Notes: a model not told the origin generated them from the sequence alone. Shown: positions 4,225 through 54,944, numbered from the stretch's first letter. The stretch is DNA of 64,000 nt from an uncultured Ruficoccus sp. (GCA_965140785.1 OZ223510.1:1-64000); one strand, 5' to 3'. Made by a program: numbers and translations.

Positions 4225-4248
4225 ACTAAAATAGCCGGTGATTTTAGC
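4225..4248. promoter_or_regulatory. Locus-1 operator candidate ACTAAAAT-N8-ATTTTAGC
   Basis: Spaced inverted repeat upstream of the sulfatase; same motif and spacing at 10589, 14151 and 19812. Confidence 0.65.
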
Positions 4249-4347
4249 TTAAATTTCATTCGATGCGTTATGCTGAATATGTTGAAATGCTTCATCGAAA
4301 AAAAAGGGGCCGGGATGTCCCAAATCATCGTTCATAGCATCGAGATA

Positions 4348-5889
4348 ATGAAGCAGGAAACAAATCGGTTAAACGTGCTTATGATCCTCGCGGATCAGTT
4401 CAACGCAGGCTGGATGGGAACTGAGGGTCACCCGCAGGCGATAACGCCTCATCTGGACAAATTGTCCGCCGGGGGCATCACTTTCAGTAACGCCTATTGC
4501 CAGAATCCGATCTGTACGCCCAGCCGTGTTTCGATCGCCTCTAGCCAGTATTGCCATAATCATGGTTATTACGGGTTGAGTGGGAACGCCGAGGTCGGCC
4601 CACCAAATGCTTTCCGGCACTTTCGCCAGCACGGTTACCGAACGGCTGCCTACGGGAAACTGCACCTGCCCTGCGCGCCGAGCAACTGGATAGCCGGCGA
4701 TGTGGACGAGTTTGGCGATACCTATGAGACGGCCGACAATGTCCACGGGCAGAGCGAGTTTTTAAGCGGCCTGGAGCGGGACGGCCTGCGCGATCTGGAG
4801 GACAGTTGGCACAACTGGAAAGCCTATGGGGCCAGTGGGATTCCGATGGACGCGATGCCCTCGCTGCTGCCGCTGGAGAGGACCCAGGAAATGTGGTCTG
4901 CCAATAAGGCCATGAACTTTATGAGGCAGAGTGGGGAGCAGCCGTTTTTCATTCAGGTCTCCCTGCAAAAACCTCATCATCCCTTACTGCCCAACCCGCG
5001 TTTTTGGGACATGTACCCGGAGGATATCGAGTTGCCTCGGACTTGGAACCTTTTGCCCGGCGGGCGACCCCGGCACTTCAGCGATCAGTGGAAAACCTGC
5101 CGGGAAATGCAGCCCGAGTTCGGGGAGCCCGGGGAGGGGATCGAGGCTCTGTACCGTCGTTGCTGGCGCGGAACTCTTGCCTGCGTGACTCAGGTGGATT
5201 ATGTGGTCGGGCAGTTGATGGACTTTTTGGAGGTAAACGGTTTGCACGAGAACACGATCGTGGTCTTCGGCAGCGACCATGGGGCCTACCATGGTATCCA
5301 CGGTATTTTGGAAAAGGCTCCCGGCATCTGCTCGAACGAAGTGTGCCGGGTGCCGATGATCTGGCGCATCCCCGGGCTGACCGATGCTGGTAGGAGATGC
5401 GATGCCCTCGCGGAAAACATCGACATGGGGCCGACATTGGCCGAGCTGTGCGGCGTAGCGGAAATGCACTACGCCGACGGTAAGAGCCTCTGTCCTCTGA
5501 TTAAGCGGGAGCGAGCCTCCCTGCGTGAGGCCGCCGTGACCGAAAATGCCTGGAGCAAATCGATCCGCTGGGAGCGCTGGCGTCTGGTTTATTACCCGAC
5601 TGGGATGTTGGGGCCAGAGGCAACAGGTGAACTTTACGACCTTGAACGCGATCCCGACGAACAGCAAAATCTTTACGGGCATCACGACTACCAGGAGCAA
5701 GTCCGTGCCGGCATGATGCACCTGACGGATTGGCTGATTAAGACCACACGGGTGACAACTCCGCCGACGCTTGTCCAGACGGTGAAGAAGCTGGGCGAAT
5801 CTCGGGTGGTTTCTCTTGAGGGCGACGGACGGGCCGCCAATCCCTTTCAGCCTGGTTTTCGTGACGACCTGATGATCAATTATCTCTGA
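4348..5889 (+). CDS. Formylglycine-dependent sulfatase (no evident signal peptide)
   Basis: NVLMILADQ, PICTPSR (CxPxR), YGKLH, KPHHP, SDHG, ELYDLERDPDE. Start taken at MKQETN; the ORF track starts at 4270. Confidence 0.93.
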   Translation: MKQETNRLNVLMILADQFNAGWMGTEGHPQAITPHLDKLSAGGITFSNAYCQNPICTPSRVSIASSQYCHNHGYYGLSGNAEVGPPNAFRHFRQHGYRTAAYGKLHLPCAPSNWIAGDVDEFGDTYETADNVHGQSEFLSGLERDGLRDLEDSWHNWKAYGASGIPMDAMPSLLPLERTQEMWSANKAMNFMRQSGEQPFFIQVSLQKPHHPLLPNPRFWDMYPEDIELPRTWNLLPGGRPRHFSDQWKTCREMQPEFGEPGEGIEALYRRCWRGTLACVTQVDYVVGQLMDFLEVNGLHENTIVVFGSDHGAYHGIHGILEKAPGICSNEVCRVPMIWRIPGLTDAGRRCDALAENIDMGPTLAELCGVAEMHYADGKSLCPLIKRERASLREAAVTENAWSKSIRWERWRLVYYPTGMLGPEATGELYDLERDPDEQQNLYGHHDYQEQVRAGMMHLTDWLIKTTRVTTPPTLVQTVKKLGESRVVSLEGDGRAANPFQPGFRDDLMINYL

Positions 5890-5934
5890 GCGGGGGAACG
5901 TTCAAACCCTGCCCGCGCCGTTCAAGCGGCAAAG

Positions 5935-6209
5935 CTAGAGCATTTTCGTTTTAATCTGGCGCACTCGGCTGAGCTGATTTTAAGTTCTGGCAAGGCTCTT
6001 TCAAGGGACTTGGGCTGGAAGCCCTGGCCCTTTGAAAGGAACGCCGCCAGGCTTAAAATCAGCCAGTCCATTCGGATGGGGTCTGTCTTGCGGCTCGCGG
6101 CGTTGGCTGGGGGACTTACGGGCTTCCAGTCCGCTACGCCCCCAGCGCCTGCCGAGCCTTCAAGACATTTCCCCACTGAGTGCGACTGATTAAAGCGAAA
6201 GTGCTCTAG
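5935..6209. mobile_element. MITE-like palindromic element, 275 bp, CTAG ends
   Basis: Left end CTAGAGCATTTTCGTTTTAATC versus right-end reverse complement CTAGAGCACTTTCGCTTTAATC. Internal hairpins GCTGATTTTAAG/CTTAAAATCAGC and TTTCAAGGG/CCCTTTGAAA. Lies between convergent genes; no transposase. Confidence 0.75.
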
Positions 6210-6240
6210 TTGGCGCGGGGAACGGGCCACCTGCAGTCGT

Positions 6241-8217
6241 CTATTCCGATGGTCCGAGGTGCTTGTGGACGGTGCCGTCGTCGGCGGCGTCGCGTGAGGC
6301 GGATTTCAATTTGCGGATCATGATGAGGATATCGCGGATGCCGCCAATGACGAACCATATGACCGTGATGCTGGCGACCGTGGCGTACAGGTAGATGTTG
6401 GCCTTCCAGAAGCCCATCCAACCGTCATCGGAGATGCCTGTCGTCAAGCCCCAGACTGTGCCGATGATAAAGGCGACGAACCATCCCATCGTCCAGCAGA
6501 TGTTCAGGTAGTAGATGAGGCGGTCGCCCCGGGTATACTCCCGGTTGAAATTGAACATGCGGTGAAGCCAGTTGCGTGTATCCCTTACGATCTCCTTGTT
6601 CTTGGATTCATCGTCTTTGCAGTCGTCGCCTTGAAGCATTTCCTTGATCGGGAAGGGCTGCTTGCAAGTCAACAGGGAGACGACGACGTAGGAGGTGATG
6701 GAAGAGAGATAGGCGATCATGGCCAGAGAGGCGCCATTGAGCGGAAACTCCGGCCTGATCCGTATGAGGGCGGGCACACCCTCCCAAGTCTGTTGTAGGA
6801 TGATGCCGGTGAGGGCCACGACCCAGCCGACGGTCATCGCGGCCCAGGCACCCTGCGTTGTGCCCCGTTTCCAGTATAGTCCACCGATGATAACCGCGCC
6901 CGAACCGCCCAGGTAGATGGTGCCGGTGAGCAGAAAATACATCAGTAGGTAGTCCTTGAGAGGGAAGTACAGGCTCCAGAAAAAGGCGAATGCGGCCACG
7001 CCGAAAACGGAGAGCCGAAGCAGGCGGAGGTGGGCCTGGGGGGAGAGCGGTTTTTTACGAAAAGGCAGGATGACGTCCTGAATAAAGATGCTGCCCCAGG
7101 AGTGAATCTGTGTGTCGTCGGTGGATATGGCGGCCGCGATGATGGCTGCCCCGAACATGCCCAGTACGCCCACCGGGAGAATGGCCGAGAGCAGGATGGG
7201 CACGCGCATCTGCTCCTGCGCCTGTGGGTCACTGATGGCTCCGATGGCGTCATTTACACTGGCAACGAGGTCCGGGGTGCCGCCGCCGTTGAGCAGGACA
7301 TAAGCGCAGATCGGGGCGAAGAGCATCAGCATGTAGGTGATGCCGTTTCGCCACTCGGCCAGGACGCGCGCCATCTTTGCCTCGTGAGGGCTTTTGGCCG
7401 CGGCGTTGTAGCCTTGGTTGCCCTGCCAGCCGAGGCAGTTGTAGACCAGCTTGAAAGCGAAAATGAGAAAGAACCAGACAGTGAAATCCGTCAACTCGTG
7501 TTGGTCGAAGGGGTTGAGCATGGACTTGCCGGTGGGCGCGGTCTGCAGGACTGTGCCTATCTTTTCCCAAGAGATCGAGGTGATCAGAATGAAGAAGATG
7601 ACGAGAAAGCTCACATTGAGCAGAATGGACTGAAAGAAGTCGGTCACCATAACTGCAATCAACCCGCCGAACAGGGTGAAACACAGGGCGATGCTGAGCG
7701 TGACGCCCATTATCACGGGCTTGGTCTGCCAGATAAAGCCCAGGAACTCAAAGCTCTCGGGCAGGCCGCAGAAGTGGATGAGAAAGAGGGCCGTGATGCC
7801 CGGGAAAACCCCGTAGTTCAGGATGCCCGAGACCCAGGCGAGAATACCCGCATAGACACGAAATTTGCGACTGTAGCGCATTTCAAATAGCTGTGCCATC
7901 GTCATGGCCTGACTTTTGCGGTAGCGATATACGATCCAGCCCGACAGCGCGATGATCATGGCGATGGGAGCCATCATCATGCCCCACCAGGCTCCGCCGA
8001 AGCCGGCCTTGTAGAATTTCTCAAAGTTGGCCACCACGGCAATGGCCCCCAGCGCCGCCATTCCGTCGGCCAGCGTGAGCAGGTAGCGTCCGGCGCAGCG
8101 GTTGGCGGCCAGAAAGTCCGACACGCTGCGGGTCAGTGATTTCGCGTACACGGCGACGGCGAAAAGAAATACACCGAAGGCGAGAATGATGGTCCAGTCG
8201 ATGAGGCTGAAATTCAT
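6241..8217 (-). CDS. Sodium:solute symporter (SSS) family transporter
   Basis: 658 aa with many TM helices; IDWTII, DFLAANR, TMAQLFEMRYS, GGLIAVMVTDFFQ, AAAISTDD, GGLYWKRGTTQGA. Confidence 0.92.
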   Translation of the reverse strand: MNFSLIDWTIILAFGVFLFAVAVYAKSLTRSVSDFLAANRCAGRYLLTLADGMAALGAIAVVANFEKFYKAGFGGAWWGMMMAPIAMIIALSGWIVYRYRKSQAMTMAQLFEMRYSRKFRVYAGILAWVSGILNYGVFPGITALFLIHFCGLPESFEFLGFIWQTKPVIMGVTLSIALCFTLFGGLIAVMVTDFFQSILLNVSFLVIFFILITSISWEKIGTVLQTAPTGKSMLNPFDQHELTDFTVWFFLIFAFKLVYNCLGWQGNQGYNAAAKSPHEAKMARVLAEWRNGITYMLMLFAPICAYVLLNGGGTPDLVASVNDAIGAISDPQAQEQMRVPILLSAILPVGVLGMFGAAIIAAAISTDDTQIHSWGSIFIQDVILPFRKKPLSPQAHLRLLRLSVFGVAAFAFFWSLYFPLKDYLLMYFLLTGTIYLGGSGAVIIGGLYWKRGTTQGAWAAMTVGWVVALTGIILQQTWEGVPALIRIRPEFPLNGASLAMIAYLSSITSYVVVSLLTCKQPFPIKEMLQGDDCKDDESKNKEIVRDTRNWLHRMFNFNREYTRGDRLIYYLNICWTMGWFVAFIIGTVWGLTTGISDDGWMGFWKANIYLYATVASITVIWFVIGGIRDILIMIRKLKSASRDAADDGTVHKHLGPSE

Positions 8218-8363
8218 GGGATGTCAAAAAGTGCTAAGGGGTGACGATTACCCGGATATCCACAAGGCGATGAGCGCGGGACTCTCCGGTGCAGGCGACA
8301 GTGGTCAGGAAATAAACGGCGGGAGCAGCTATGACTTACTCCATACCTTGATAACTAAAAAAA

Positions 8364-9398
8364 CTAACAGTAGCGAAGCCGGAGGTTGAACGAAGCCTCC
8401 TGTGGGTCTTTGGGCCGGACGGCGACGACGAGTACGGGGGCCCCGTCGGGCTGGAAAAACAAGTTGGGGCGCTCGACTCGCTCAAAGTCCACGGTATGGC
8501 CGTTGATGTCCTTCAGGGTACGTCCAATGACAAAGAGGGGGTCGCTCGGGGTCCAGTCAGTGCCATTGTGGGACTGGAGCAGGAGGAGGCTGCTTTCGCG
8601 GGTGGGGGACAGGGTGCCCTGCATGTCTTTGACCAGGCAGTAATAGCAGTCACCTTCGCGCCACACATAGGGGTCTTCAAAGGCGAAAGGCGTATCGTCG
8701 AAATTGAAGATCGGGGCAGGTGTCTTGATGAACGGTCCCTCCGGACTGTCGGCCCAAGCCAGCCCATGCAGGACGCGTCCGCCAAAGGGAGAGGGGCCTT
8801 CGGCCACCCCTTTGTAAATCATCATGAAGCGTCCGTCAGGGGTATCCGTCACCGTGGGGTTCGAGACCATGAGGGCATCCCAGGCGCCGGGGGTGACGTC
8901 AAGAGCCGGAAGCTCCTGCCGGTGCCAGGGGCCGTTCGGGTGGTCGGCGATGGCGACGCCGATGCGCTGGTTGTTGCGGTGAGTCCACCACTCGCCGTTG
9001 CCGACATTGCCCATGTAGTACAGGTAGTACCGGTCGTTAAAGTGTTTGACGGCCACATTATGAAAGCAGTGGGCGTCCCATAGCTGGCTTCTCTCGTCGC
9101 GGGGCCAGAGTTGCTCGACGAAGGTGAAGGGACCGGAGGGAGAATCACCCACAGCGTGGGCGATTTCGGAGTGCGTGACCCAGGCATCGTAGCCTTCGGA
9201 GACCGGCCACCGGCTGTAGAAGAGGTGGTAGCGCTCCGCGTCGGGGTCTTTGAGGAGGGAGCCACACCACACATGCCAGCCGTCCTCGCGGAAACATTCT
9301 TCAGGTTTGAAAGGTTGGGGCCCTTGTTTAAGTAAATGAGCGAACTGCGATCCTGTGGGCCGGGCTGCAGTTTGTGTAGCTAGTTTTTCTTGTGGCAT
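8364..9398 (-). CDS. Five-bladed beta-propeller glycoside hydrolase (GH43/GH117-like clan), cytoplasmic
   Basis: WCGS...YHLFYSRWP, HSEIAHAVGDSPSGPF, NQRIGVAIADHPNGPW, SNPTV, AFEDPYVW, ERPNL; no signal peptide. Confidence 0.78.
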   Translation of the reverse strand: MPQEKLATQTAARPTGSQFAHLLKQGPQPFKPEECFREDGWHVWCGSLLKDPDAERYHLFYSRWPVSEGYDAWVTHSEIAHAVGDSPSGPFTFVEQLWPRDERSQLWDAHCFHNVAVKHFNDRYYLYYMGNVGNGEWWTHRNNQRIGVAIADHPNGPWHRQELPALDVTPGAWDALMVSNPTVTDTPDGRFMMIYKGVAEGPSPFGGRVLHGLAWADSPEGPFIKTPAPIFNFDDTPFAFEDPYVWREGDCYYCLVKDMQGTLSPTRESSLLLLQSHNGTDWTPSDPLFVIGRTLKDINGHTVDFERVERPNLFFQPDGAPVLVVAVRPKDPQEASFNLRLRYC

Positions 9399-9438
9399 GT
9401 CTTAATGGAGCCAGTGGACGATAGATAAAATCAGGCAG

Positions 9439-10449
9439 TCAGCATTTCGCTTCGGAGACGGTGCCGCGGTCCTCGTATTGCACGGGCAGCACGACCATGG
9501 CGGGACCGGTGGAGTGTCCTTCAGCTTTCTGGATCAAACGAAGGACGCCTTCTTGGCCCACTTGGCGCAAAGGGTAGAGGATGGTTGAAATCCGCGCCTC
9601 GGACTCGGGAAGATAGGGGTCCACACCGATGGCGATCAGGCTGATGTCTTCGGGGATCGACAGATTCGCTTCGGTCAGGGCACGCATGACGCCGAAAGGC
9701 TTTGAGTAACCGGAAAAGGCTGCGGTGAACTTCGTACCGGGGTTTTCGGCCAGGTACTTTTTGACGGCTTCATAACCTTCTTCGGAGGAGTCGCCTTCGC
9801 TTTTGACCATGATAATGTTTTTCTCGGTCATCCCGGTGTGCAGCATGGCCCGGTTGAGGTGAGAGGAGACGAACGGAGACTGCTCGTCCGAATAGGCAGA
9901 CTTTACGCAGAGAATCTTGCGGTGGTTCTTCTCCTTCAAAATGTTCAGCGCCACCTCAAAGCCCGCTTCGTAGTTGGGGATGACCGAATCCCAATTCGGA
10001 TCGACCGTACCGTTGACGATGACAACCGGCATTTTGAGCCTCTTGAGTTCCGCCAGAAGTTGGTGCGGCGGCGGGCCCAGGACAAGGACACCGTCGGCCT
10101 TGTTGCGGGTGAAAATGTCGCTTTCCTGCAGGCTGTCTTTGTTGTGCAGGCGCTTGATAATGGCGTGAAAGCCGCGCTCCTCCATCGTCTCCTCAATCCC
10201 GCGATAGATTTCAGAGAAATAGGGGTTTTCGAAACAGCTTCGCAGGTCCTCGAACGTCGCCACGATGATGGTCTTGCTCAGGCGTGTGCGTGGCTTGGGT
10301 TTGTAGCCGAGTTCTTCGGCTGCGTTTTTCACCTTGGTGCGGGTGCTGTCTGGGATGGAGATGTCCTGACGGTTATTCAGAACCATCGATACCGTGGAGA
10401 GGGAGAACCCGGTTTTTTTGGAGATGTCTTTGAGTTTGGGAGTGCTCAT
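9439..10449 (-). CDS. LacI-family transcriptional regulator (locus 1)
   Basis: LKDISKKTGFSLSTVSMVLN HTH, AEELGY, periplasmic-binding-type effector domain, IPEDISLI; divergent from the gene at 10685. Confidence 0.92.
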   Translation of the reverse strand: MSTPKLKDISKKTGFSLSTVSMVLNNRQDISIPDSTRTKVKNAAEELGYKPKPRTRLSKTIIVATFEDLRSCFENPYFSEIYRGIEETMEERGFHAIIKRLHNKDSLQESDIFTRNKADGVLVLGPPPHQLLAELKRLKMPVVIVNGTVDPNWDSVIPNYEAGFEVALNILKEKNHRKILCVKSAYSDEQSPFVSSHLNRAMLHTGMTEKNIIMVKSEGDSSEEGYEAVKKYLAENPGTKFTAAFSGYSKPFGVMRALTEANLSIPEDISLIAIGVDPYLPESEARISTILYPLRQVGQEGVLRLIQKAEGHSTGPAMVVLPVQYEDRGTVSEAKC

Positions 10450-10588
10450 GATTCTCTTATAGATTGGTGTTAACTTAAATGCGGTCAAAGGCAGGGGGCT
10501 GTATCAGGGGAATACCTAAGTGCGGGATGGAGATGTAGCGGTGCGGCAACGGTGAAGGACGCGCTTGGAGATTCATTAGCTACGATTA

Positions 10589-10622
10589 ACTAAAAAGTTT
10601 TTAAATTTTATCAAATAAAAAA
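10589..10622. promoter_or_regulatory. Locus-1 operator candidate ACTAAAAA-N8-ATTTTATC plus AAATAAAAAA
   Basis: Shares ACTAAAA and the 16-bp TTTATCAAATAAAAAA, at identical spacing, with 14151-14184. Confidence 0.65.
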
Positions 10623-10684
10623 GTTGAAAATTTTACTTTCCATTGCAGTTATCTAATTACGCTTTTGCTGAACAATTGCTTAGT

Positions 10685-13600
10685 ATGTTTACCCGTAGTA
10701 TTTACCTCTTAGGAGTAGGCTTGGCGGCTTTGATCCCGCTGCAACAGTCCTGTTTTGCGGCCCAGGAAACCTTTCTGGTTGAGGCCGAGGATTTTGAATT
10801 TCTTGGGGATTGGATCCCGGGATGGAACGACGGACAGACTGTCCTCGGCGTGGTGAGCCATGAGCGGGCCCATCCGCAAGATGCGCTTACGGTGGTCGAA
10901 TTGCCCGAGGCGGGCGAGTACACTGTCTGGACCAGCTCGCGAGACTATGCCAATGACAAGCCGGGCAGCCGCCGCTATCAGGTTCAGGTCAATCAGACTC
11001 CCATGGAACACGAATCCGGAACGCACGGCGGAGAGGGCGTCGCTTGGGAGCGGGTGGGACAAGTGGAGCTGGAGAAGGGCGAGAACGTTCTTGCGATCCA
11101 TGATACGACTAACTTTTACGCGCGTTGTGATGCGGTCCTGTTGACCCGGGATTCCAGCTACGATCCCAATGACGATCTCCGCGTGCGCCGTTACCGCATC
11201 ATGCCCAAGCAAATGGGGGGCGGGTTGGGCGATGGTGCTGTTGTGCCAGCCGAGGCTGCCGTTGATGGGAGCTGGCAGGTTGCGGCCACGCTGGAAAACG
11301 ATACCAATCGTATTCGCTTTTTGCAGGGGCTCGACACCGCAGGAAAGCCAAGGGTCATTCGTCAGGTTGATCTTTGGACCGACAGCGGCTTCAGTGGCGA
11401 ACAGCTTAACGCCGTCGGCGAAATCCTGACCCTGATCGAGGCGGGCGAAGATCCCTTGATCTCATTTGGGCGCATCATCCCTTACTGGCGCGGTCGTGGA
11501 AGCGTACTGGAGATTGGGGGCAAGAGCTATGAAGTGGTTGGAGGGAAAAACTTCAGCGATCCTTTTCGTGCTGGCAAGGCCACTGCATTAGTCGCACGGG
11601 CTGTGACCGACGTGGCCGGGCAGAGTGTCACGCTTCTCTATGAGGGGCCGGACGGTACGGCAGTGACGGGGGTATGGCGCCTTCAGTCTGAGTCGAATAC
11701 GGCGGAGGTTACGCTATCTTATGTTCCGAAACAGGCCGGGTACTACAGTCTCGCGTTGTCGGCCTTTAATGCCCACGCCCGCGAGGCGGTGGCCAATGTG
11801 CAACTGCCACCCCTTTATCAGTTTCAGCGCCTGCCGGATGGTCCGACGTTGGTGACCAGTACGCTGACACCGATGCCGGCGGCGATCGTCGAGTATGCCG
11901 GCGAGTCCCCGTTGACGGCCTTTGTGGCCGGTGATCCCAATTCCTTTCCGCTCGAGTGGGGGACGGGCATGGACTCGGTGTATGGTTTCTCGCTGCTGAA
12001 TGCTGCGAGTGAGGTTCAGCCGACTATTTTCGCGCCGGTGTTGGGGACGGAGCGTTCTTACTTCGCAGCGGATGATGAGCTGTCGGTCAGCTTCGTGCTC
12101 GGGGCGGCTCCAACGGACTGGCAGGCCGTCTTTGAGTTGATTTCTGCTGAGTTGTACGCCTTCAGCGACTACCGTGAGCAGTACGTCGGTTCCTTGACGG
12201 ACGCGGTTTTTAACATCATCGAGCTGCTCGCTGACGATGATGCCGTGGGCTGGGACCCCACGCAGAAAGGCTTCTATGACATCGAGGGAGACCCGCACAT
12301 TAGCCCGGTCGTGGTTCAGGCTTCCCCGCTCGCCGTTCTCTCGGCCGCTGTTCTCACCGAAGACGAGGACCTGTATGTCGAGCGGGCTCTGCCCGGCATC
12401 GAGTACACGCTTTCGCGACTGGGCTTCCGCTATTCCGGCAAGCCCGGCTCGCCGCACTTTAACAAGGACAGCGACGAGCAGTTCGTTCCCTTCAGCCTGG
12501 AATTCAATACCGCCTATTACCAGGGGCTCGATGCTTTGTTGGCGGGCAAAAACCCATGGATAGCCGAGGCTGTTCTGCCCGAGGACGGGAAGCTGCGCCG
12601 CACAGCGGGCTACGCCGTGCCCTTGCCGACTTGGACACAGTACCTCGCTGCTGAGCGTCTCAAGCCCGGGCAGGGATATCTCGCCAAGGCCGTTGCCGGA
12701 GCTGATGCCTATATCGCGCGCAAGATTACCGCTCCACAGGAGGAGCCGATGGGCGTGCGCCATTTCTACAATGCGAATTTCTATCCCTACTGGTGGGACC
12801 TGCTCGATCTGTACGAGGTAACCGGGGACGAAAAATACCTCGAGGTGGCCGAGGATATGGCCTACCAAACGATGGCGGGGATCCGTATCTTTCCGGTCGT
12901 CCAGGACGAGAGTATGACCATCCATCCGGGGGGAGATTTCAAAGGTGACAGCGTGTTGCTCTGGAAAGGTCAGGAGAGATTTCGGCTGGGCTTCCCGACT
13001 CAGGCCGGTGATTTCCCTGAGCGCACAGTGTCTCAGGCTCAGGTCTCGCCTGTCGGGCTGGGACTGGAGCAGCCGACGACTCTCTTTGGCGCGGAAAAAC
13101 CGAACCGCCAGATCATGATGACCGCCTGGACGCCCAGCCTGCTGCGTCTGTATCAATATACAGGCAATGAACTGCTGGTGCCCTATGCTCGAAACGGAAT
13201 CATTGGCCGCTTCACCAACTATCCGGGCTACTACCTGGGAGGCTTCACCGATATCGCCCAGCAGCCGGATTACCCGTATGTGGGGCCGGATGTCACCTCG
13301 ATTTACTTTCACCATATTCCGCCGCACCTGGCGTTTGCGATGGATTTTCTGGTCACGGAGGCAGTCGAACGCTCCGGGGGTAATATCAGCTTCCCGTGGG
13401 CGCGACAGGAGGGCTTTGTGTGGTTCGATAACCGTGTTTACGGGATGGGCGAAGGAAGTATTTTCGGTGAAAAGGCCCGCCTCTTCCTCAATTCAAACAT
13501 CCTGGCCCTGAACAACCGGCAGGTGAATTACCTGACGGCGAAGTCTCCGGGCATGCTCTGGGTGATCCTGCTCAACGAGGATGCGGAAGCGGTGGACTGT

Positions 13601-14150: not shown

Positions 14151-14184
14151 ACTAAAATAACCATAAAATTTATCAAATAAAAAA
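14151..14184. promoter_or_regulatory. Locus-1 operator candidate ACTAAAAT-N8-AATTTATC
   Basis: Upstream of the PEP-CTERM gene; matches the site at 10589. Confidence 0.65.
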
Positions 14185-15095: not shown

Positions 15096-15307
15096 TTTCC
15101 TTTTTGTAGTGAGCGGATACGGCAACGCTTTCGGTCGCGTATTCGCTCACCCCCTTTCATGTTTTCACTCGCCGGGGCGTTGCCCCGGAAGCGCTTGGCT
15201 GTGCCCGTATGCAGGCACCGGAGCTTCTTGTTGTGAGTGTCTGGGCGGCTGTTCGTCGGGCCCTTTCGGTTAACCCTGTGTGTCTTTGCTGCTTAATATT
15301 TATAAAG

Positions 15308-22874: not shown

Positions 22875-22881
22875 GGCTCAA

Positions 22882-41179: not shown

Positions 41180-41226
41180 GAGTTGAAGGTTAAGGCTTTC
41201 TTTTATAAAGGACAGAAATGCTCGGA

Positions 41227-41263
41227 TTATACATATAAATCTTCGCTGATTTATGCGCATAAA
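41227..41263. promoter_or_regulatory. Tandem locus-2 operator candidates TTATACATATAA and TTTATGCGCATAAA
   Basis: Two sites 24 bp apart in the divergent GH10/ABC intergenic region; the second is a perfect 14-bp palindrome with central CG. Confidence 0.65.
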
Positions 41264-43696: not shown

Positions 43697-43708
43697 TTAT
43701 TTGTATAA
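43697..43708. promoter_or_regulatory. Locus-2 operator candidate TTATTTGTATAA
   Basis: About 85 bp upstream of the PEP-CTERM gene at 43794. Confidence 0.6.
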
Positions 43709-43793
43709 ATCAGTGCCGCCTTGTGCTTTCGAAACCATAGGCATTGACTGGTATACAGTCATTAAACCCTGATCCTAACACCCTATTACTCCT

Positions 43794-44729: not shown

Positions 44730-44741
44730 TTATATGTATAT
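44730..44741. promoter_or_regulatory. Locus-2 operator candidate TTATATGTATAT
   Basis: One mismatch to the consensus; upstream of the PEP-CTERM gene at 44817. Confidence 0.5.
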
Positions 44742-47531: not shown

Positions 47532-48368
47532 CTAATTGAGGGGAGATATCTCGACCTCGTAGATGGAAAAATGCACGCTGTCGCCGCTCTCCTTGGTTTG
47601 GGCCTGGAAGGCGATCGCGCTCTCAGCAGGAGCCCAGTCTTCTTCTTTGGCGCGGTAGCGCAGCCCCTCTGCGCTGACCGAATCCCGCCCATCCGAGACG
47701 GAGATGTCGTAGGTTCCTTTTTTCGGGTAATTCTTGATCGTGATTTCGTAGGTCTTGCCAATTTTGACGGACATGCCTTTGCCCCAGCCGCCGATCTCCT
47801 CCATCTTCTTGCCGGAGAATGCCCCGCCGTTGGCGTCCCCGTGGTAGGCGGCCCATCTCCAGTCGGAGGGTGTCTTGCCGATGGTGCGTACGGCCCAAGT
47901 GGAATCGATGGTGAAGTTTGTCCGGGGTCGGTCACCGCCGAAAGCGCCGACGAAGTCTGAAGAGACGTCGAAGCCCTCCGCCTTGTTCACCTGGATTTTA
48001 AACCGGATCGTATGCGGACGGTCGGCGTCGCGGTACTTGCGCATGACCGAGGCATTATTGTATTCTTGGCTCGGTGAGCCAACCTGCATGTCAAATGCGA
48101 GGTGCGAGGGACGGGGCGTCTCCTCGAGCTGGAGGCTCAGGGTGATGTTGCGGGCGTGGCTGGGGATGCTCCATCCGTCCGACCAGCCCGAGCCTTTGGA
48201 GCCGGGATACTGATTGGGCTGGCGATTGCCGGTGCCATCGGAAAAGTCGGTCCTGGCCTCCTGAGCCGTTAGGGAGAGCGCGGTGACGGCGCTCAGCGTG
48301 CCGGCCAGTACGGCTGCACGGGCCAGCGTCTTGATACGGGAGTGGTGTCTTTTTTTCATGGGATTCAA
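47532..48368 (-). CDS. Secreted hypothetical protein, Trp/Gly-rich beta-sandwich (lectin-like?)
   Basis: Signal peptide ending SLTA; begins 6 bp after the GH10 stop; beta-strand-rich pattern. Confidence 0.6.
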   Translation of the reverse strand: MNPMKKRHHSRIKTLARAAVLAGTLSAVTALSLTAQEARTDFSDGTGNRQPNQYPGSKGSGWSDGWSIPSHARNITLSLQLEETPRPSHLAFDMQVGSPSQEYNNASVMRKYRDADRPHTIRFKIQVNKAEGFDVSSDFVGAFGGDRPRTNFTIDSTWAVRTIGKTPSDWRWAAYHGDANGGAFSGKKMEEIGGWGKGMSVKIGKTYEITIKNYPKKGTYDISVSDGRDSVSAEGLRYRAKEEDWAPAESAIAFQAQTKESGDSVHFSIYEVEISPLN

Positions 48369-48374: not shown

Positions 48375-50174
48375 CTATTGTTGAGTTTGGATCTCGAGGT
48401 TGAGCGGGGATTCATCGAGGCTGGCTTCCCGCGTATCGACGACTTTTTCCCCGATCAGCGTTGTGATCCGGTAGTCGCCCTTGAAGCCGCGGGCGTTCCA
48501 GGCACCGTCGCTGCCGGTCTGGCCGGAGGTCTGCGTCCACCATTCCCCGCGCACGAGGTCGAGGTAGGCGCGTCCGGCGGGGCGGATTTTCCAGTCGAGG
48601 GTCCAGAGGGCGGCGGTGGGTTTCCAGTGGCGGCCTTCCCAGAAGCCCCACATCTGGATGCCGGTGACGGAGGGATGGCTGAAGGCGGCGGTGTAGAAGT
48701 CGCGCAGGTAGGCGGCTTGGAAATCGTCGTTGGCGGTGTCGATGTCGAATTCGGTCACCTCGATGTCGAGACCGAGTTCTTCCAGGCGGTCGAGTGTTTC
48801 AATGATCTGCGCCGGGGGCGTGACGACCCAGCCGTTGTAGTGGCATTGGATGCCGATGCCGTCGATGGGCGCGCCCTCGTCGAGGAGGTATTGCGCGGTG
48901 CTTTCCAGCACACCGATGCGGAAGTCCGGACTGAAGGTCAGCGCCTCGTTCAGAAAGAGCCGTCCCTGCGGCAGCCATTTGCGGGCCTCCTTGAAAACTT
49001 CGACCATGAAGCTCTCGCCACCCAGCAAATCGAGGATGTCGTGGTTGGTGCGCGGCTCGTTGATGACGTCCCACTCCTGCACGTAAGGACCGGTCGCCAC
49101 GAGGATGTCCTTGACGTGTTCCATGATCAACTGCCGCAGGCGGTCGGGGTCGGAGGCCGCCTCGCTCAGGTAGTCCGGCGTGCGCCCGCGGTTGAAGGTA
49201 GGCCAGAGCAGAACATGGCCGCGCATCTGGGTCATCCCGTTTTGCTGGAGCCACTCCAGCCCGTGCAGGGTCCGCTCCCGGGTTTCGGTCCACGTCGGCC
49301 ACTTGAGATCGTTTTCCGTGCCACAGGTGTCGAAGTTATTTAAGAGAATACTCTGGTACATGGCGGTATCGGCAGCGTCAGAGTAAGCGAGCACTTGCTT
49401 AATGGAAATCGCGGTGCCAAAGCCGAAGGCGTGGCGGGTCTGCTCCAGACGGACCGTGGCGTTCGGGACGGGGTTGCCGGATGCGTCAGTCACGACAATG
49501 CGTACGTCCTGCTTACGGTATTTCTCGATCCGCACCTGGGCTTTGCGGCGCCAGTCTGCCTCGGCCTCGTGGCCCTCGTACATTTCGGGAGTGGTGGCGG
49601 GAAGGGTAGACAGCTCGGTGTCGCGTGGCAGGCGCAGTAGTTGGAGGTCCTTGATCTCGATGGTCTGGGCGTCGTAGCCGAGGCGCAGGTTCAGGTTGAG
49701 CTCTCCCTTGCCATAGTCCCTGCCGACCCGGCCCGGCACAAAGAGCTCCTTCCACTCACTGACGGCGGGGAAGCGCGCCCAGATGGTTTTGGTATAGGGG
49801 GACTGACCCATTTCGACCAAGGTGCCGATCTGTCCGACGCCGCTTTCGGCCAGTGTCTCCAGGCAGCGGACCTTGAACCGCAGCAGGAGCGCGTCGCCGG
49901 GCTTGAAGCTTTCCGGCAGCGTAGCGCGCAGCTGGATAGCGCTGTCACTGGAGGGGCGCGGGCCAAACGTCTGGAGACGCAGGAGCCCGTCCGGGTTGCC
50001 ATTGGCTGGCGTTATGGTCACAGCTTCCGCATTCGGGTAGGCGCGGAAATTCCCGATCTCCACCGGCACGGCGTCGTCAGGGATACGTTTGGTTTCCTGG
50101 GCTGACAGGCCGGGAAGTGCCGTTAAGCAAGCGAGGCCCACGAGCAAGCGGGCGGCATGGTCAAAGGTAAACAT
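48375..50174 (-). CDS. Secreted GH10-fold glycoside hydrolase (paralog 2)
   Basis: Signal peptide; TENDLKW, RGHVLLW, WDVINEP, EVTEFD. Confidence 0.88.
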   Translation of the reverse strand: MFTFDHAARLLVGLACLTALPGLSAQETKRIPDDAVPVEIGNFRAYPNAEAVTITPANGNPDGLLRLQTFGPRPSSDSAIQLRATLPESFKPGDALLLRFKVRCLETLAESGVGQIGTLVEMGQSPYTKTIWARFPAVSEWKELFVPGRVGRDYGKGELNLNLRLGYDAQTIEIKDLQLLRLPRDTELSTLPATTPEMYEGHEAEADWRRKAQVRIEKYRKQDVRIVVTDASGNPVPNATVRLEQTRHAFGFGTAISIKQVLAYSDAADTAMYQSILLNNFDTCGTENDLKWPTWTETRERTLHGLEWLQQNGMTQMRGHVLLWPTFNRGRTPDYLSEAASDPDRLRQLIMEHVKDILVATGPYVQEWDVINEPRTNHDILDLLGGESFMVEVFKEARKWLPQGRLFLNEALTFSPDFRIGVLESTAQYLLDEGAPIDGIGIQCHYNGWVVTPPAQIIETLDRLEELGLDIEVTEFDIDTANDDFQAAYLRDFYTAAFSHPSVTGIQMWGFWEGRHWKPTAALWTLDWKIRPAGRAYLDLVRGEWWTQTSGQTGSDGAWNARGFKGDYRITTLIGEKVVDTREASLDESPLNLEIQTQQ

Positions 50175-50291
50175 AATGGGTAAATTCTCTGGGTTATCTG
50201 GCTGTAAGTTTAGTTGTGGGAGTGGAGGGACTCGGCTGTATTTGCAAAACAACTCACGTCGCATGCTCGTTCCCTATTTTGCATACACAGC

Positions 50292-52103
50292 CTAGAGTTT
50301 GATCTGCACCTGGGCGGGTGTTTCACCCAGGGTGAGTTCACGGACATTTACCACGGTTTCGCCGATGAGGATAGTGACACGGTACTGCCCCTTGAAGCCG
50401 CGGGTGGTCCAGGCGCCGGTGCTGTCGGTCTGGCCGGACTCCTGCGTCCACCATTCTCCGCGCACCAGGTCGAGGTAGGCTTGTCCGGAGGGGCGGATGT
50501 TCCAGTTCTCGGCCCAGGGAGCGGCGTCGGGTAGCCAGTGCCGTCCGGCCCAGAAGCCCCACATCTGGATGCCGGTCACAGCCGGGTGGCTGAAAACCGC
50601 CGTGTAGAAGTCGCGCAGGTAGCGCGCGCGGAACGTGTCGCTGGGCGAGGCCAGGTCGAATTCCGTCACTTCAATATCGACGCCCAGTTTAGCCAGGCGA
50701 TCGAGCGTGCTGAGAATCTGCTCAGGCGGGGTGACCTCCCAGGCGCCGTAGTGACACTGCACGCCGAGACCGTCGAGCGGGGCTCCCTCGTCGAGCAGGT
50801 AGCGGGCCGTCTCTTCAAAGGCATCCATCCGGCTGTCGGCGGTGAGGGTGAGGGCTTCGTTGAGAAAAAGCCGGCCTTCGGGCAGCCATTTACGAGCCTC
50901 GTCAAAGACTTCTAGCATGAAGGAGCGGCCGCCGAGGATGTCCAATATCTGGTGGTTGTTGCGGGGTTCATTGATGACGTCCCACTCCTGGACATAAGGG
51001 GCGGTCGCGGTGAGGATGTCCTGGACGTGCTCCAGGATCACTGACCGGAGTTTTACCGGGTCGTCGGCGTACTGCTGGAGCCAGCCCGGGGTACGCCGGT
51101 CCACAAAGCTGGGCCAAAGCAGGACGTGGCCGCGCATCTGGTCAAAGCCCCGCTCCTTCAGCCACTCCAGTCCTTGCAGGGTTTTCTCACGGTGCATTTC
51201 CCAGCCGGGCCACTTGAGGTCGTTCTCGGTGCCGCAGGTGTCAAAGTTGTGCAGCAGCACGCTCTGGTACATGGCACGATCTGCCGCGTCGCCTGTGCCA
51301 ATGAGGTACTTGACCGCGATGGCGGTACCGAAGCCGAAGGCGTGGCGGGTCTGCTCCAGGCGGACGGTGGCCTCGGGCACAGGGTTTCCGTCGTTGTCGA
51401 CGACTTGTATCTGTACGTCTTGCTTGCGGTACTTGTCGATGCGTTGTTGGGCAGCCTGGCGCCAGGCCGCGTCCTTTTCATGGCCGGAATAGAGAGGCGG
51501 CTCGGTGGAGGGGACGGCGTAGAAGTCGGTTGCTTCAGGCAGGAGCCAGAGCTTGATGTCCTTTATTTCGAGGGTCTGCGCGGGGTAGCCGAGGCGGAAT
51601 TTCAGGATGACGCGGCCCGCCGCGTAATCCCGCCGGGTGACCCGGCCCTTGAGGGTCAGGGTCTGCCACTCGGGACCGACTTCGAAACCATGGCGGGACC
51701 AGATGAATTTTTTGTAGGGGGGCTCGTCCACCTCGACGAGGGGAGATATCCGGCCCAAACCATTATCCGACTCGCTGTGAGGACAGCGGACCTTGAAGCT
51801 CAGGACGACGATGTCTCCCACGTTGAACGCGGTGTCCAGCGTGTAGCTGATCTGGTCGCCTCTGTCGTGCGCGGGGGCCGGGCCATCGACGGTGATTTGA
51901 AGCGTCTGTGGGCCGGGGGCGTCCGTGCCGGGAAGCCAAGTCAGCTTGGCCCGCGGGGAAGCCACTGTGAATTGGCCGGACTGGGGGCCCGTGAAAATCG
52001 GATCGGTGCCTTTGAGGGAATTGTCACCTTCTTTCCCCGCCACGGCGATCAGACTGGAGATGATAAGCGCGAGGACGGAAACGACGGGATAGGGTAAGCT
52101 CAT
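50292..52103 (-). CDS. Secreted GH10-fold glycoside hydrolase (paralog 3)
   Basis: Signal peptide; TENDLKW, RGHVLLW, WDVINEP, EVTEFD. Confidence 0.88.
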   Translation of the reverse strand: MSLPYPVVSVLALIISSLIAVAGKEGDNSLKGTDPIFTGPQSGQFTVASPRAKLTWLPGTDAPGPQTLQITVDGPAPAHDRGDQISYTLDTAFNVGDIVVLSFKVRCPHSESDNGLGRISPLVEVDEPPYKKFIWSRHGFEVGPEWQTLTLKGRVTRRDYAAGRVILKFRLGYPAQTLEIKDIKLWLLPEATDFYAVPSTEPPLYSGHEKDAAWRQAAQQRIDKYRKQDVQIQVVDNDGNPVPEATVRLEQTRHAFGFGTAIAVKYLIGTGDAADRAMYQSVLLHNFDTCGTENDLKWPGWEMHREKTLQGLEWLKERGFDQMRGHVLLWPSFVDRRTPGWLQQYADDPVKLRSVILEHVQDILTATAPYVQEWDVINEPRNNHQILDILGGRSFMLEVFDEARKWLPEGRLFLNEALTLTADSRMDAFEETARYLLDEGAPLDGLGVQCHYGAWEVTPPEQILSTLDRLAKLGVDIEVTEFDLASPSDTFRARYLRDFYTAVFSHPAVTGIQMWGFWAGRHWLPDAAPWAENWNIRPSGQAYLDLVRGEWWTQESGQTDSTGAWTTRGFKGQYRVTILIGETVVNVRELTLGETPAQVQIKL

Positions 52104-52184
52104 GGGCAGGTCTTTGATAGAGGGGGGCAGGGGTTGGCCCTTACCGTATCGAAACGGGGTGGAAGGAAGAAACACTTCCGGTTT

Positions 52185-52267
52185 TTATACAAATAAACTG
52201 GAGGATGCCTGAAAATGGCGAAGCGGGTGATTTCTGCCGGATTCAACCCCACCAATTATATGTATAA
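52185..52267. promoter_or_regulatory. Two locus-2 operator candidates: TTATACAAATAA (52185-52196) and TTATATGTATAA (52256-52267)
   Basis: Divergent region between GH10 paralog 3 and the prepilin-like gene. Confidence 0.65.
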
Positions 52268-52325
52268 ATTTCATTGAAGCTGTGCGACATTAATGACCAT
52301 GGTAAGGTGCTGTCCATTGGAACGC

Positions 52326-53018
52326 ATGACCATTTCCCCTTACCCCCTGTCCCGCTCTCGTGGCTTCTCCCTGGTTGAATTGCTGATGGTGATCGCGATT
52401 ATCGCCATCCTCGCAGCGATATTGATCCCCGTTACCAGTTCGATCCGCAAGCAGGGGTATGTTACGCATAACCTGGCCAACCTGCGAGCCTTACAGGCGG
52501 CGAATATCCTCTACGCGCAGGAAAACGACGGCAGCTTCGTGCCGGTGGGGGCGTTTAACGAAAACGGCAGCTACGGGAGCTTCTGGTATCAGCGGGACGA
52601 TTTCGTCGTCGAGTATTTGGAAATTCCAGACCCCTCCGATTGGCCGGAAAACCGGCTCTCCCCGCTGGCGACCCAGCGCAACCCGGCGGGCGAACTTTAT
52701 ATCTCGCGTTCGTACGGGTATAATTTTACCGAGCTGGGCGCCTATGGGGTGGCCAACACCTCCCGGGTGGCCACCATCAATACGGTGGCGGATCCAGCTC
52801 AGACCCTGGCCTTCGCCGATGCGCTGGACTGGCAGATACAAATGAGCGGAGCCAACCGCTATGTGAGCGAAGAGGCCGACGTCAACGTGAACCAGAACAA
52901 TGCCATCGCCTACCGCTATGACGGGGCCGCAGGTGTTGTTTACTTCGATGGCCACACGGCCATGCTCAAGCGGGCAGACGTGGTCGATAACGAAAAACTC
53001 TGGCTCATCCGCGAGTAA
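52326..53018 (+). CDS. Prepilin-type N-terminal cleavage/methylation protein with X9-DGH motif
   Basis: RG|FSLVELLMVIAIIAILAAIL, LANLRAL, LYAQENDG, SYGYN, YRYDGAAGVVYFDGH. Confidence 0.9.
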   Translation: MTISPYPLSRSRGFSLVELLMVIAIIAILAAILIPVTSSIRKQGYVTHNLANLRALQAANILYAQENDGSFVPVGAFNENGSYGSFWYQRDDFVVEYLEIPDPSDWPENRLSPLATQRNPAGELYISRSYGYNFTELGAYGVANTSRVATINTVADPAQTLAFADALDWQIQMSGANRYVSEEADVNVNQNNAIAYRYDGAAGVVYFDGHTAMLKRADVVDNEKLWLIRE

Positions 53019-53223
53019 AGGCGGACCCGGCCTAAAGGCAAAGACGGCCCCTTGGCATCCTTGGGATACGCATCCGTCGTAGCTGCATGGCTTGATGGAA
53101 CATTAATCCAGAAATTAAGACATCTGTCGTCTGGATGTATTTATCTATCTAAGGTAATTCTGTGTGGATTCCATAACACCCGAAACATAATTCACTTTCC
53201 TGAATGATAATCCTTTGAGCCCC

Positions 53224-54944
53224 ATGAATACGATAGCATGCAATTCCGCCACTCACGAACGACTCCTCAACGGCCTGTGGGATTTTTCCTTCCTGGGCGA
53301 TGTCGATCCCGACCGGGTGCCCGAACCGTCGAGCATCTCGTGGAAAAAGGTCATGGTGCCTTCCGCCTTTGATGCCTTACTCAAGACCCAGGGCAAGCGC
53401 GGCTTGGCGCTCTACAGGCGGGAACTCCCGCTGCCCGCCGGGCAGGACGGCGAGCTGTGGTTCGGGGCTTTGTCGATGTGGAGCCGCGTTTATGTCGATG
53501 GCGAACTGCTGCGGGAGAACGCCTGCGGTTACGAGCCCCTGCGTGTGCGTGTGCCCGCCTCGCCCAGCGAGAAGCGCGAGCTGCTCGTGGTGGTGGATAA
53601 CCGCTTCGACTTCGAGCGCGTGCCCATGCACGAGGAGTATTTTGATTTCTATCAGTACGGGGGCATTTTGCGGGAGGTGAAGCTACGCCTGCTGCCCCGG
53701 CAGGGGCCGTGGATCCAAGCGGTCCGCGTTACGCCCACTGAGGAGTATCGGGCAGGCAAGGTCACCGTCGATGTTATGATCGAGGGGGAGCAGGGAGACG
53801 GTTTGCAGATCATGGCTGGCTTCGACGGCGAGGCGCCCCGTGTGGTTTCAGCCGCACCCGGAGTGATCGAGGGCGGGCTGCGCGTGAGCTTGACGGTTCC
53901 GGCTCCACGGCTGTGGAGCCCGGATGAGCCGAACCTGCATGGGCTTGAGATCGCTCTGGACGATGGCACGGGGACGATTATTGACCGGCGTTGCGTACGC
54001 TTCGGGCTGCGCCGGATCGAAGCCCGCGAGGCCCGGCTTTGGCTCAATGGCGAACCGCTCATCCTCAAGGGTTACAACCGGCATGAGTGGCACCCCAGCG
54101 TCGGCCCCTGTACGCCGCCCCCGCTGATGTTCGAAGATATCGAGCTGATGAAGGATTTGGGCTGCAACTTTGTGCGCGGCTCGCACTACCCCCCCAGGAC
54201 CAGCGATTCCTCGACCTGTGCGACGAACTCGGACTGCTCGTGTGGGAGGAGAACCTCGGCTGGGGCCAGCGGGAGAAGACCTTCGCCAGTGAGAAGTTCG
54301 TGCGCGACCACCGCCAGTCGCTGATTTCGATGGTCCACGAAAGCTATAACCATCCCAGCATTATCTGCTGGGGTTTTCTGAACGAGGCGGGCAGCGACTC
54401 GGCGTACTCGCGGGCGGTCTTCGAAGAGAGCGCGGCGCTGCTGCGTGAACTCGACCCCAGCCGGCTCGTGACGTACGCCACCATGTTTCCCTTGACGGAC
54501 CTCCATTACGACCTGGTGGACCTGATCAGCATCAACACCTATCCGGGCTGGTATGCCTGCGAAAGTGTGGCGGACCCGGTCTCCCTGATCAAACCGCGAC
54601 TGGAGGCTCTTGTCGCATCGGTGGACGAACGGGGCTTTAAGGACAAGCCGGTGATGATCTCCGAAATCGGCGCCGAGGCCCTCTACGGCTGGCGCGACGG
54701 GCACAACGACTTTTTCACCGAAAGCTATCAGGCCCGCTACCTGGCTACCGCCCTTGAAGGGGTCCTGGACAACCCGCGCTACAGCGGTATCTCGCTCTGG
54801 CTGTTCAGCGATACGCGCACCTATAGTGGCGGGTTTTCGCTGATGCGTCCGCGTACCTATAACAATAAAGGGACCCTGGACGAGTACCGGCGGCCGAAAG
54901 AAGCGTATGCCGTGGTTAAGCGGGCCTTTACCGGCGGATGTTAG
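53224..54944 (+). CDS. GH2 beta-glucuronidase-like enzyme, apparent frameshift in a C7 run
   Basis: LNGLWDF, YGGILREV, LKGYNRHE, VRGSHYP|QDQRFLDLCDELG (break at 54189-54195), WGFLNE, ISEIGAE, NNKG uronidase-type motif. Confidence 0.85.

Follow-up and report, generated by a model that had tools for sequence, protein, structure and literature searches.

How large glycans pass the outer membrane without SusC/D is a standing question in bacteria of the Planctomycetes-Verrucomicrobia-Chlamydiae (PVC) superphylum, many of which play a major part in breaking down sulfated and algal polysaccharides. The idea that PVC pili fish for polysaccharides is already in print for Planctomycetes, where pili-like 'fishing-rod' fibres are proposed, in the accessible parts of two reports, to attach to intact polysaccharides and pull them in without TonB (PMC5394234; PMC12078418). 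According to the available sections of Boedeker et al. 2017, the fibres were shown, together with labelled dextran (PMC5394234). For Akkermansia, the available text describes MUL2 as a type IV-like pilus locus connected with attachment to fucose-rich glycans (PMC13174399). Here we analysed a window of 64,000 nt from an uncultured Ruficoccus sp. (GCA_965140785.1 OZ223510.1:1-64000; 'the window' means this whole stretch). The host genome is Opitutales/Puniceicoccales-type, within the Verrucomicrobiota, and its assembly is 4.36 Mb at ~60% G+C. The window holds two loci, locus 1 (4.2-21.2 kb) and locus 2 (36.8-54.9 kb), each carrying one prepilin-like gene together with genes for PEP-CTERM proteins and large secreted proteins.

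These are two of about 35 glycan-utilisation loci in the genome that are built on one plan. The plan combines a local regulator (LacI, GntR-PBP or AraC), one highly diverged prepilin-like gene of the H-X9-DG type, secreted enzymes, an inner-membrane importer and leaderless enzymes. Often it also includes a non-enzyme PEP-CTERM protein.

Pilin-like open reading frames (ORFs) of this DGH type were defined by a regular expression, which found 38 in the genome; a profile adds at least four more. The profile-only members are C4:188364, C4:262137, C26:176241 and C20:56297, three of them near a LacI helix-turn-helix (HTH) match or a PEP-CTERM gene. The neighbourhood set comprised 36 pilin-like genes in 35 loci, with four called genes taken on either side (238 neighbours scanned), and 12 random neighbourhoods (92 proteins) served as controls. 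One match of the regular expression, C18:69495, was left out of the family as a member of a five-gene pseudopilin-type run, and another, C34:50971, lies outside the neighbourhood set and overlaps a PEP-CTERM ORF. A carbohydrate-active enzyme (CAZyme), lyase or sulfatase recognised by Pfam was present in 28/35 pilin-like neighbourhoods compared with 2/12 random ones (Fisher p 1.7e-4), with a further 2/35 ambiguous on CAZyme content. One of the two positive random neighbourhoods itself adjoins a pilin-like gene. Pilin-like genes are thus not randomly distributed relative to CAZyme clusters, an outcome in favour of an initial annotation of this DNA. The glycoside hydrolase (GH) families found among the neighbours were GH2, 4, 5, 10, 20, 29, 39, 42, 66, 71, 78, 88, 106, 113 and 127, alongside alginate- and heparinase-type lyases and sulfatases. 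LacI, GntR-PBP and AraC regulators recurred, as did SSF, MFS_2, ABC and RhaT importers.

The genome has 55 LacI HTH matches. One lies within 10 kb of 22 of the 38 pilin-like genes, compared with a random mean of 7.8 and a maximum of 15 in 500 draws under uniform placement, a null that ignores regional structure. PEP-CTERM genes are also close companions: 9/37 pilin-like genes directly abut one, whereas the rate over all called genes is 5.0% (p 6.5e-5). In eight of these nine pairs the two genes share a strand, 3-190 bp apart, and seven run in the order PEP then pilin. Exactly one pilin-like gene was found in 34/35 loci.

Such figures could in principle arise with no functional coupling at all, if expanded pilin-like, PEP-CTERM, LacI and CAZyme families simply pile up in the same flexible regions. 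The uniform null for LacI proximity leaves room for this, 3/12 random control neighbourhoods fall in glycan regions (L039, L045, L048), and mobile and repeated elements occur in and near the loci. Chance accumulation does not however predict a single pilin-like gene per locus, nor the operon-like spacing, with 10/36 pilin-like genes lacking an upstream gap of at least 40 bp and the PEP-pilin pairs as tight as given above. Locus-specific motifs common to pilin, PEP and enzyme promoters, described next, also argue against it. We consider this explanation very improbable.

In locus 1 the motif is a palindrome. The form ACTAAAAT-N8-ATTTTAGC lies at 4225-4248, 21 bp upstream of the sulfatase gene. 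The form ACTAAAAT-N8-ATTTTAGT lies at 19812-19835, between pilin-like gene 1 and the gene at 19872, being 128 bp upstream of the former and 36 bp upstream of the latter. With up to two mismatches allowed, ACTAAAAT-N8-ATTTTAGT has only these two sites, 4225 and 19812, in the 4.36-Mb assembly. Degenerate copies are found at 10589-10612, between the LacI gene and the first large paralogue, and at 14151-14174, upstream of the gene for PEP-CTERM protein 1, where the right half matches at 5/8 positions. The 14151 copy and position 10607 have the 11-mer TTTATCAAATA in common; 11-mers are expected by chance and were disregarded unless extended.

Locus 2 has a different motif, TTATNTGTATAAA, with five copies in the genome, four of them in this locus (36844, 43697, 52184 on the minus strand and 52256). 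They read TTATGTGTATAAA at 36844-36856 (plus strand), upstream of the gene at 36899; TTATTTGTATAAA at 43697-43709 (plus), 85 bp upstream of the gene for PEP-CTERM protein 2; and TTATATGTATAAA at 52256-52268 (plus), 25 bp upstream of pilin-like gene 2. The minus-strand copy at 52184-52196 is upstream of a GH10 gene (GH10 c), and a shorter variant, TTATATGTATA, stands at 44730-44740 (plus) upstream of the gene for PEP-CTERM protein 3. The motifs are therefore locus-specific on a genome-wide scale, placed upstream of pilin-like, PEP-CTERM and enzyme genes, AT-rich and operator-like. The initial annotation had put a locus-specific palindrome upstream of the pilin-like and PEP-CTERM genes in both loci; this stands, except that the copy before the locus-1 PEP-CTERM gene is a weak version. 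Four other loci carry, directly before the pilin-like gene, a 12- to 16-mer that is found again before PEP-CTERM, LacI or GH genes of the same locus (for example C13:58514/61364/62501).

Next, conservation of the arrangement was studied in G009, a complete two-contig genome of the same genus. Of its 27 pilin-like matches, 19 have a LacI HTH no more than 5 kb away, whereas uniform random placement gave a mean of 3.5 and a maximum of 10 in 2000 draws. When the null was confined to the LacI-rich span, the observed count was reached in 0/2000 simulations, which again speaks against mere co-location. Homologues of prepilin-like protein 2 (58% identity), PEP-CTERM proteins 2 and 3 (48-51%), a 493-aa secreted protein of locus 2 (two copies, 44-47%) and the locus-2 LacI (53%) are contiguous there on one strand, in the order pilin-PEP-PEP-unknown-unknown-LacI. 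Cassette order kept across species at 44-58% identity is likewise not expected of families that only gather in flexible regions. The cassette is flanked by alginate-lyase-type and heparinase-II/III-type proteins, and no GH10 was found near it in the 38 kb examined. The order in G009 thus indicates that the conserved unit is pilin, PEP-CTERM, 493-aa-type protein and LacI, whilst the surrounding enzymes differ. A cassette beside lyases rather than GH10s also fits the 'exchangeable' module that had been proposed. At E <= 1e-20, neither G009 nor G044, also of the same genus, yielded a match to the pilin-like protein of locus 1.

We also checked the sequences of the pilin-like proteins themselves. 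In an alignment of 36 paralogues (210-300 aa, mean column identity 21%), Phe+1 and Glu+5 are invariant and all keep the site G/F-x-x-x-E, the slash marking cleavage. The consensus has 'SNLRQIG..A..YA.DH.G..P' after the helix and RHxGxxNVLFxDGHV at the C-terminus. Prepilin-like protein 1 (18980-19684, minus strand) has the site G/FSLIE, a C-terminal DGH and matches to PF07963 (1.8e-7) and TIGR02532; prepilin-like protein 2 (52293-53018, plus strand) has G/FSLVE, a C-terminal FDGH and a PF07963 match of 1.7e-7. TIGR02532 is matched by 36/36 paralogues, the H-X9-DG model TIGR04294 by 13/36 and PF07596 weakly by six, over the first ~60 positions only. The two window proteins match neither TIGR04294 (E <= 0.01) nor PF07596 (E <= 1). 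The H-X9-DG motif itself is lacking in this pair, for although DGH is kept, the His ten residues upstream is Ser in the protein at 18980-19684 and Tyr in that at 52293-53018. The family is very large: a profile of the 36 paralogues, run against 1.84 billion cluster representatives, collected 246,101 of them at E <= 1e-10 and 13,301 at E <= 1e-30.

The model of prepilin-like protein 2 (predicted local distance difference test, pLDDT, 75) has a long N-terminal helix and a small sheet. In a VIA-align comparison its first 20 rows were all type IV pilins or pseudopilins, with weak Z of 3.1-5.1, and EpsG, PulG, ComP and PilV were among these weak matches. The predicted structure thus resembles type IV pilins and pseudopilins only weakly. 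A complex prediction of PEP-CTERM protein 2 (residues 24-262) with prepilin-like protein 2 (residues 24-241) scored 0.00 and is evidence for neither side.

The main rival to a role in glycan capture starts from this family resemblance. In it, each pilin-like protein would be a locus-specific minor pseudopilin that fits a shared type II secretion system (T2SS) piston to the export, across the outer membrane, of the large secreted enzymes or PEP-CTERM protein of its own locus, with no part in binding or importing glycans. The GspG model is matched N-terminally by 34/36 paralogues, and the Atlas cluster nearest to prepilin-like protein 2 is named 'type II secretion system protein'. Each window locus has several large proteins with signal peptides to export (three GH10s in locus 2, two ~1170-aa proteins in locus 1), contig C40 carries a T2SS-type operon with secretin and GspE, and the tight PEP-to-pilin order in seven pairs could reflect a relation of cargo and adaptor. 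The present data fit export too and do not separate it from import. Against the adaptor, T2SSs are to our knowledge built with one fixed pseudopilin set for many cargoes, and we know of no cargo-specific pseudopilins; were the explanation true, this would be the first case. Three PilT-like ATPases in the genome also suggest retractile pili rather than a T2SS alone. Overall we judge an export adaptor unlikely.

A second alternative dispenses with the fibre. The N-terminal helix would anchor the protein in the inner membrane, and its periplasmic part would bind oligosaccharides and either pass them to the importer or signal to the regulator. PF07596, the related Pfam family matched by the six paralogues, is named SBP_bac_10. 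In the Atlas, prepilin-like protein 2 lies beside Verrucomicrobiota and Planctomycetota clusters of which 22-43% of the members carry PF07596. The SSF, MFS_2, ABC and RhaT importers recurrent among the neighbours would give such a binder its partners, and sodium:solute symporter (SSS) and major facilitator superfamily (MFS) importers come without a dedicated binding protein. By contrast, all 36 paralogues have a prepilin-peptidase site and Glu5, which processing and assembly require but simple anchoring does not, and the modelled fold is pilin-like rather than like that of a solute-binding protein (SBP). LacI regulators, moreover, work in the cytoplasm and respond directly to small sugars. This second alternative is improbable.

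The PEP-CTERM proteins are the other recurrent component. Counted at 150 aa or more, the genome has 87 candidates. The three in the window are PEP-CTERM protein 1 (14232-15095, plus strand), PEP-CTERM protein 2 (43794-44663, plus) and PEP-CTERM protein 3 (44817-45683, plus), and all have a signal peptide, judged by eye, a PEP motif, a transmembrane helix and a basic cluster. In protein 1, the motif is IPEP and the tail basic; it was recognised by a regular expression and by a C-terminal match to NF038120 (6.7e-5). Proteins 2 and 3 match PF07589 and are 59% identical, whereas between loci the identity of PEP-CTERM proteins does not exceed 24% and their passenger domains are very diverse. The passenger of protein 2 had no Pfam carbohydrate-binding module (CBM) match. 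Its model (pLDDT 90.6) is a beta-sandwich with 73 Foldseek matches at E <= 1e-3, CBMs and lectins foremost. These included a chondroitinase CBM, CBM11, CBM4, CBM22 and CBM61 at E 1.5e-5 to 3e-4 and TM-scores of 0.23-0.34; F-box domains that bind sugars and adhesin domains were further neighbours. The passenger is thus confidently modelled as a beta-sandwich that resembles CBMs in fold.

No TonB receptor or SusD gene is present on the window's contig, so the initial annotation was right that neither locus has one. Across the genome, PF00593 is matched at two places, contig C9 and the native contig C46, and SusD (PF07980) matches occur on C9 only, leaving no native SusD. The native receptor (L002, G000:C46:48000-62000, at 8266-11613 on the minus strand) is 1115 aa long, with CarboxypepD_reg, plug and barrel domains. 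It adjoins a 525-aa protein without a matched family and a PEP-CTERM gene, with no CAZyme nearby, and has neither the locus-1 nor the locus-2 motif. A lack of TonB receptors characterises the genome as a whole and is not peculiar to these two loci. The fifth genomic copy of TTATNTGTATAAA lies beside a SusC/SusD pair on C9, which was considered as a co-regulated receptor and rejected. Contig C9 is most likely a contaminant, because it has 39% G+C compared with ~60%, a split hybrid two-component regulator of Bacteroidota type and a SusC/D polysaccharide utilisation locus (PUL). We thus found no co-regulated TonB receptor, in keeping with the original proposal. Contig C9 is one of several that are off-composition: C9, C28, C41 and C44, as well as C15 and C20, range over 28-49% G+C against ~60% for the rest, and C20 (47% G+C) still bears host-type pilin-like and LacI genes.

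The machinery that pilin-like and PEP-CTERM proteins would require had been expected elsewhere in the genome, and it is encoded there. We found one prepilin peptidase (Peptidase_A24), five secretins and seven T2SSE-type ATPases, four long ones of PilB/GspE type and three short ones of PilT type. Exosortase (PF09721) has four matches at three places. PilB-like (594 aa), PilT-like (389 aa) and PilB-like (567 aa) ATPases stand in a row at G000:C23:6398-10388, a candidate motor set for a retractile type IV pilus.

From the architecture and statistics observed, we infer a mechanism for the steps from induction onward. The substrate would induce loading of a locus-specific pilin-like subunit onto a common pilus machine, and this subunit and a lectin-like surface protein sorted by exosortase would jointly capture the glycan and feed it to the enzymes and importers. 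When glycan is present, the local regulator would leave its locus-specific sites. The single prepilin peptidase would then cleave the pilin-like protein, which may join a common type IV pilus or T2SS-like machine and form a minor or tip subunit specific to the substrate, whilst exosortase would sort the CBM-like PEP-CTERM protein to the cell surface. The two proteins together may hold the polymer at the cell and hand it toward the secreted endo-enzymes and the envelope. An SSS, ABC or MFS importer would take up the fragments and leaderless enzymes would finish them. We hold this mechanism tentatively, at a little short of an even chance.

A broader proposal is that the expanded PVC prepilin-like family confers specificity on a system that captures and imports glycans independently of TonB. 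ComP-type pilins are a precedent for a minor pilin that sets the ligand specificity of a shared retractile machine. By analogy with their action on DNA, one inducible subunit per locus, often accompanied by a PEP-CTERM lectin, could retarget one retractile pilus. This generalisation is rather doubtful; if true, the family would take the functional place of SusC/D in Opitutales and other PVC bacteria.

In a survey of 61 genomes from the order, expansion to at least 20 pilin-type matches was seen in three families and in one further 2.2-Mb genome. All genomes with an expanded family have at most 5 TonB-receptor matches, and genomes with at least 13 TonB receptors have at most 17 pilin-type matches. 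Pilin-like and TonB-receptor counts are negatively correlated (Spearman rho -0.38, p 0.02, n=37 genomes of at least 2.5 Mb). A negative relation is unexpected under pure export, the adaptor explanation, but the order-wide anticorrelation is a hint only.

Several points weigh against the proposed capture mechanism. The anticorrelation is weaker on family means (rho -0.40, p 0.065), the genomes compared are related, and pilin-like counts that reach 48 are lower bounds. In G014, which belongs to another family of the order, 4/12 pilin-like genes had a clear neighbour of the CAZyme, lyase or sulfatase type, compared with 3/5 control regions, these five being arbitrary rather than random. The co-occurrence that had been predicted across relatives thus holds within the genus, where LacI proximity recurs in G009, but shows no enrichment in G014, as co-location without coupling would have it. 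Within the present genome, 5/35 pilin-like neighbourhoods have no CAZyme. Exact sharing of 12-mers upstream of pilin-like genes (5/26) is modestly higher than background (168/2152, p 0.05), and for 13-mers it is 3/26 (p 0.11). The CBM likeness of PEP-CTERM protein 2 is at fold level only, with low TM-scores of 0.22-0.35. The model of prepilin-like protein 2 had no Foldseek match at E <= 1e-3, and every fold match was weak (Z <= 5.1). Finally, the scheme names no outer-membrane passage for polymer or oligomer.

In G014, large LamG, FG-GAP or BNR proteins stand beside 5 more of the 12 pilin-like genes, and the other 3 have neighbours of neither kind. At L051-L053 (G014:C1:35000-79000), a single strand carries five pilin-like genes at intervals of 5-11 kb, in alternation with giant LamG/Ig (1598 aa), FG-GAP and BNR_2 proteins.

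The remaining content of the two loci was established by scanning the window ORFs with Pfam and NCBIfam; signal peptides of the large locus-1 paralogues and the GH10s were, like those of the PEP-CTERM proteins, judged by eye. All genes listed by the initial annotation were found in their places, one label being weak. Locus 1 begins with a sulfatase (4270-5889, plus strand; PF00884, 1.9e-39) that has no evident signal peptide. On the minus strand follow an inner-membrane SSS importer (6241-8217; PF00474, 2e-21; TIGR00813, 1.2e-31), a leaderless GH43-like protein (8364-9398; partial match to PF04616, 5e-9) and the LacI-family regulator (9439-10488; PF00356, PF13377 and PF00532), which by Pfam is complete, with HTH and periplasmic-binding-protein-like sugar domain. 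Two large paralogues with signal peptides, 37% identical, lie on the plus strand on either side of PEP-CTERM protein 1: a 1165-aa protein (10643-14140) and a 1177-aa protein (15209-18742). Neither gave a family above cut-off in the Pfam and NCBIfam scans. For the 1165-aa protein there was only a weak GH127-like hint (E 0.03, Pfam at E <= 1), and a sequence search against solved structures found no match at E <= 1. The Atlas clusters nearest to the large paralogue are hypothetical proteins. A 452-aa protein without signal peptide (19872-21230, plus strand) closes the locus; its GDSL/SGNH match (PF13472, E 0.0011) is below cut-off and the label 'SGNH esterase' is weakly supported. At 5930-6225, between sulfatase and symporter, is an element of ~276 bp with terminal inverted repeats, resembling a miniature inverted-repeat transposable element; at least seven more near-full copies, 92-98% identical, are present on other contigs.

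Between the loci, genes for an outer-membrane efflux protein and a fusion protein of HlyD type make up an operon with a DUF3302 gene (21375-24432), and a second leaderless sulfatase lies at 24636-26225. Upstream of locus 2 are a GH3 (29972-31639), a SASA-type esterase, GFO, ThuA and two AraC regulators.

Locus 2 starts with a 396-aa protein for which the Pfam scan matched no family (36899-38089, plus strand). Its LacI-family regulator (38104-39174, minus strand) passes Pfam thresholds with the HTH alone (PF00356, 7.9e-9). Three secreted GH10s, mutually 56-64% identical, are on the minus strand: GH10 a (39299-41260), GH10 b (48375-50264) and GH10 c (50292-52175). An ABC importer survives as a remnant on the plus strand (41803-42233) that consists of SBP residues 107-190 of 450 and the last 40 aa of a second permease, followed by an intact MalK-type ABC ATPase (42507-43634, plus). 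A repeated element of ~162 bp with inverted ends (42240-42400) is placed exactly at the junction of the deleted importer genes, and four more copies, ~99% identical, occur elsewhere in the genome. The GH2 (53215-54944, plus strand) has no signal peptide and is split in the window into two frames that overlap at 54087-54324. Contigs of two public runs have 2 bases fewer at 54189, which joins the frames, so the break is probably an assembly variant and not the mark of a pseudogene.

Two further secreted proteins of locus 2 matched no family, one of 278 aa (47532-48368, minus strand) and the 493-aa protein (45824-47305, plus), the cassette companion in the same-genus genome. The latter gave a faint squalene-cyclase-like hint (E 0.16, Pfam at E <= 1) and no match at E <= 1 in a sequence search of solved structures. 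Proteins of this type are ~470-490 aa with a Pro/Ala-rich linker, have a second site at L049 (13214-16094) and are confined to Puniceicoccales, Opitutaceae and Spartobacteria records.

The window ties single members of the family to defined enzymes (GH10 and GH2 in locus 2; sulfatase, GH43-like protein and the two ~1170-aa proteins in locus 1), to regulators and to rare motifs. Such links to named genes are a testable lead on a very large prepilin-like family without an assigned function. In the literature searched, which did not extend to subscription journals and supplements, we found no description of a pilin-like and PEP-CTERM gene per catabolic locus.

The arrangement nevertheless shares features with several known systems. 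Sus-like PULs of Bacteroidota are likewise substrate-specific and locally regulated, with one cluster per glycan, and likewise combine surface binding proteins, secreted endo-enzymes, an importer and downstream exo-enzymes. Here the SusC/SusD pair is absent, a pilin-like gene stands in the place of the transporter pair and a PEP-CTERM anchor replaces the lipoprotein. The 'fishing-rod' fibres of Planctomycetes are described, in the accessible parts of the reports, without named pilin genes, whereas the system studied here is known from genes and loci alone (PMC5394234; PMC12078418). MUL2 of Akkermansia is likewise a case in Verrucomicrobiota of pilus-type proteins tied to glycan use; as described in the available text, it is one conserved four-gene locus, amuc_1099-1102, with PilM and an archaeal-type pilin, compared with ~40 locus-specific subunits here (PMC13174399).

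The H-X9-DG (TIGR04294) and DUF1559 (PF07596) families of Planctomycetota, Verrucomicrobiota and Lentisphaerota likewise have a class III signal peptide with Glu5 and dozens of paralogues per genome. The paralogue consensus has the 'SNLRQIG..A..YA.DH.G..P' stretch and the C-terminal R-H-x-G-x-x-N-V-L-F-x-D-G-H in common with them, although the window pair matches neither model. The PEP-CTERM/exosortase system likewise involves a signal peptide, PEP motif, transmembrane helix, basic tail and exosortase genes, but here it is tied to catabolic loci and not to exopolysaccharide synthesis. The T2SS pseudopilins GspG-K and the DNA-uptake pilins ComP and ComGC have the same N-terminal module as the pilin-like proteins. 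The latter are larger (210-300 aa), have their own C-terminal DGH, are encoded away from machinery operons and occur one per catabolic locus.

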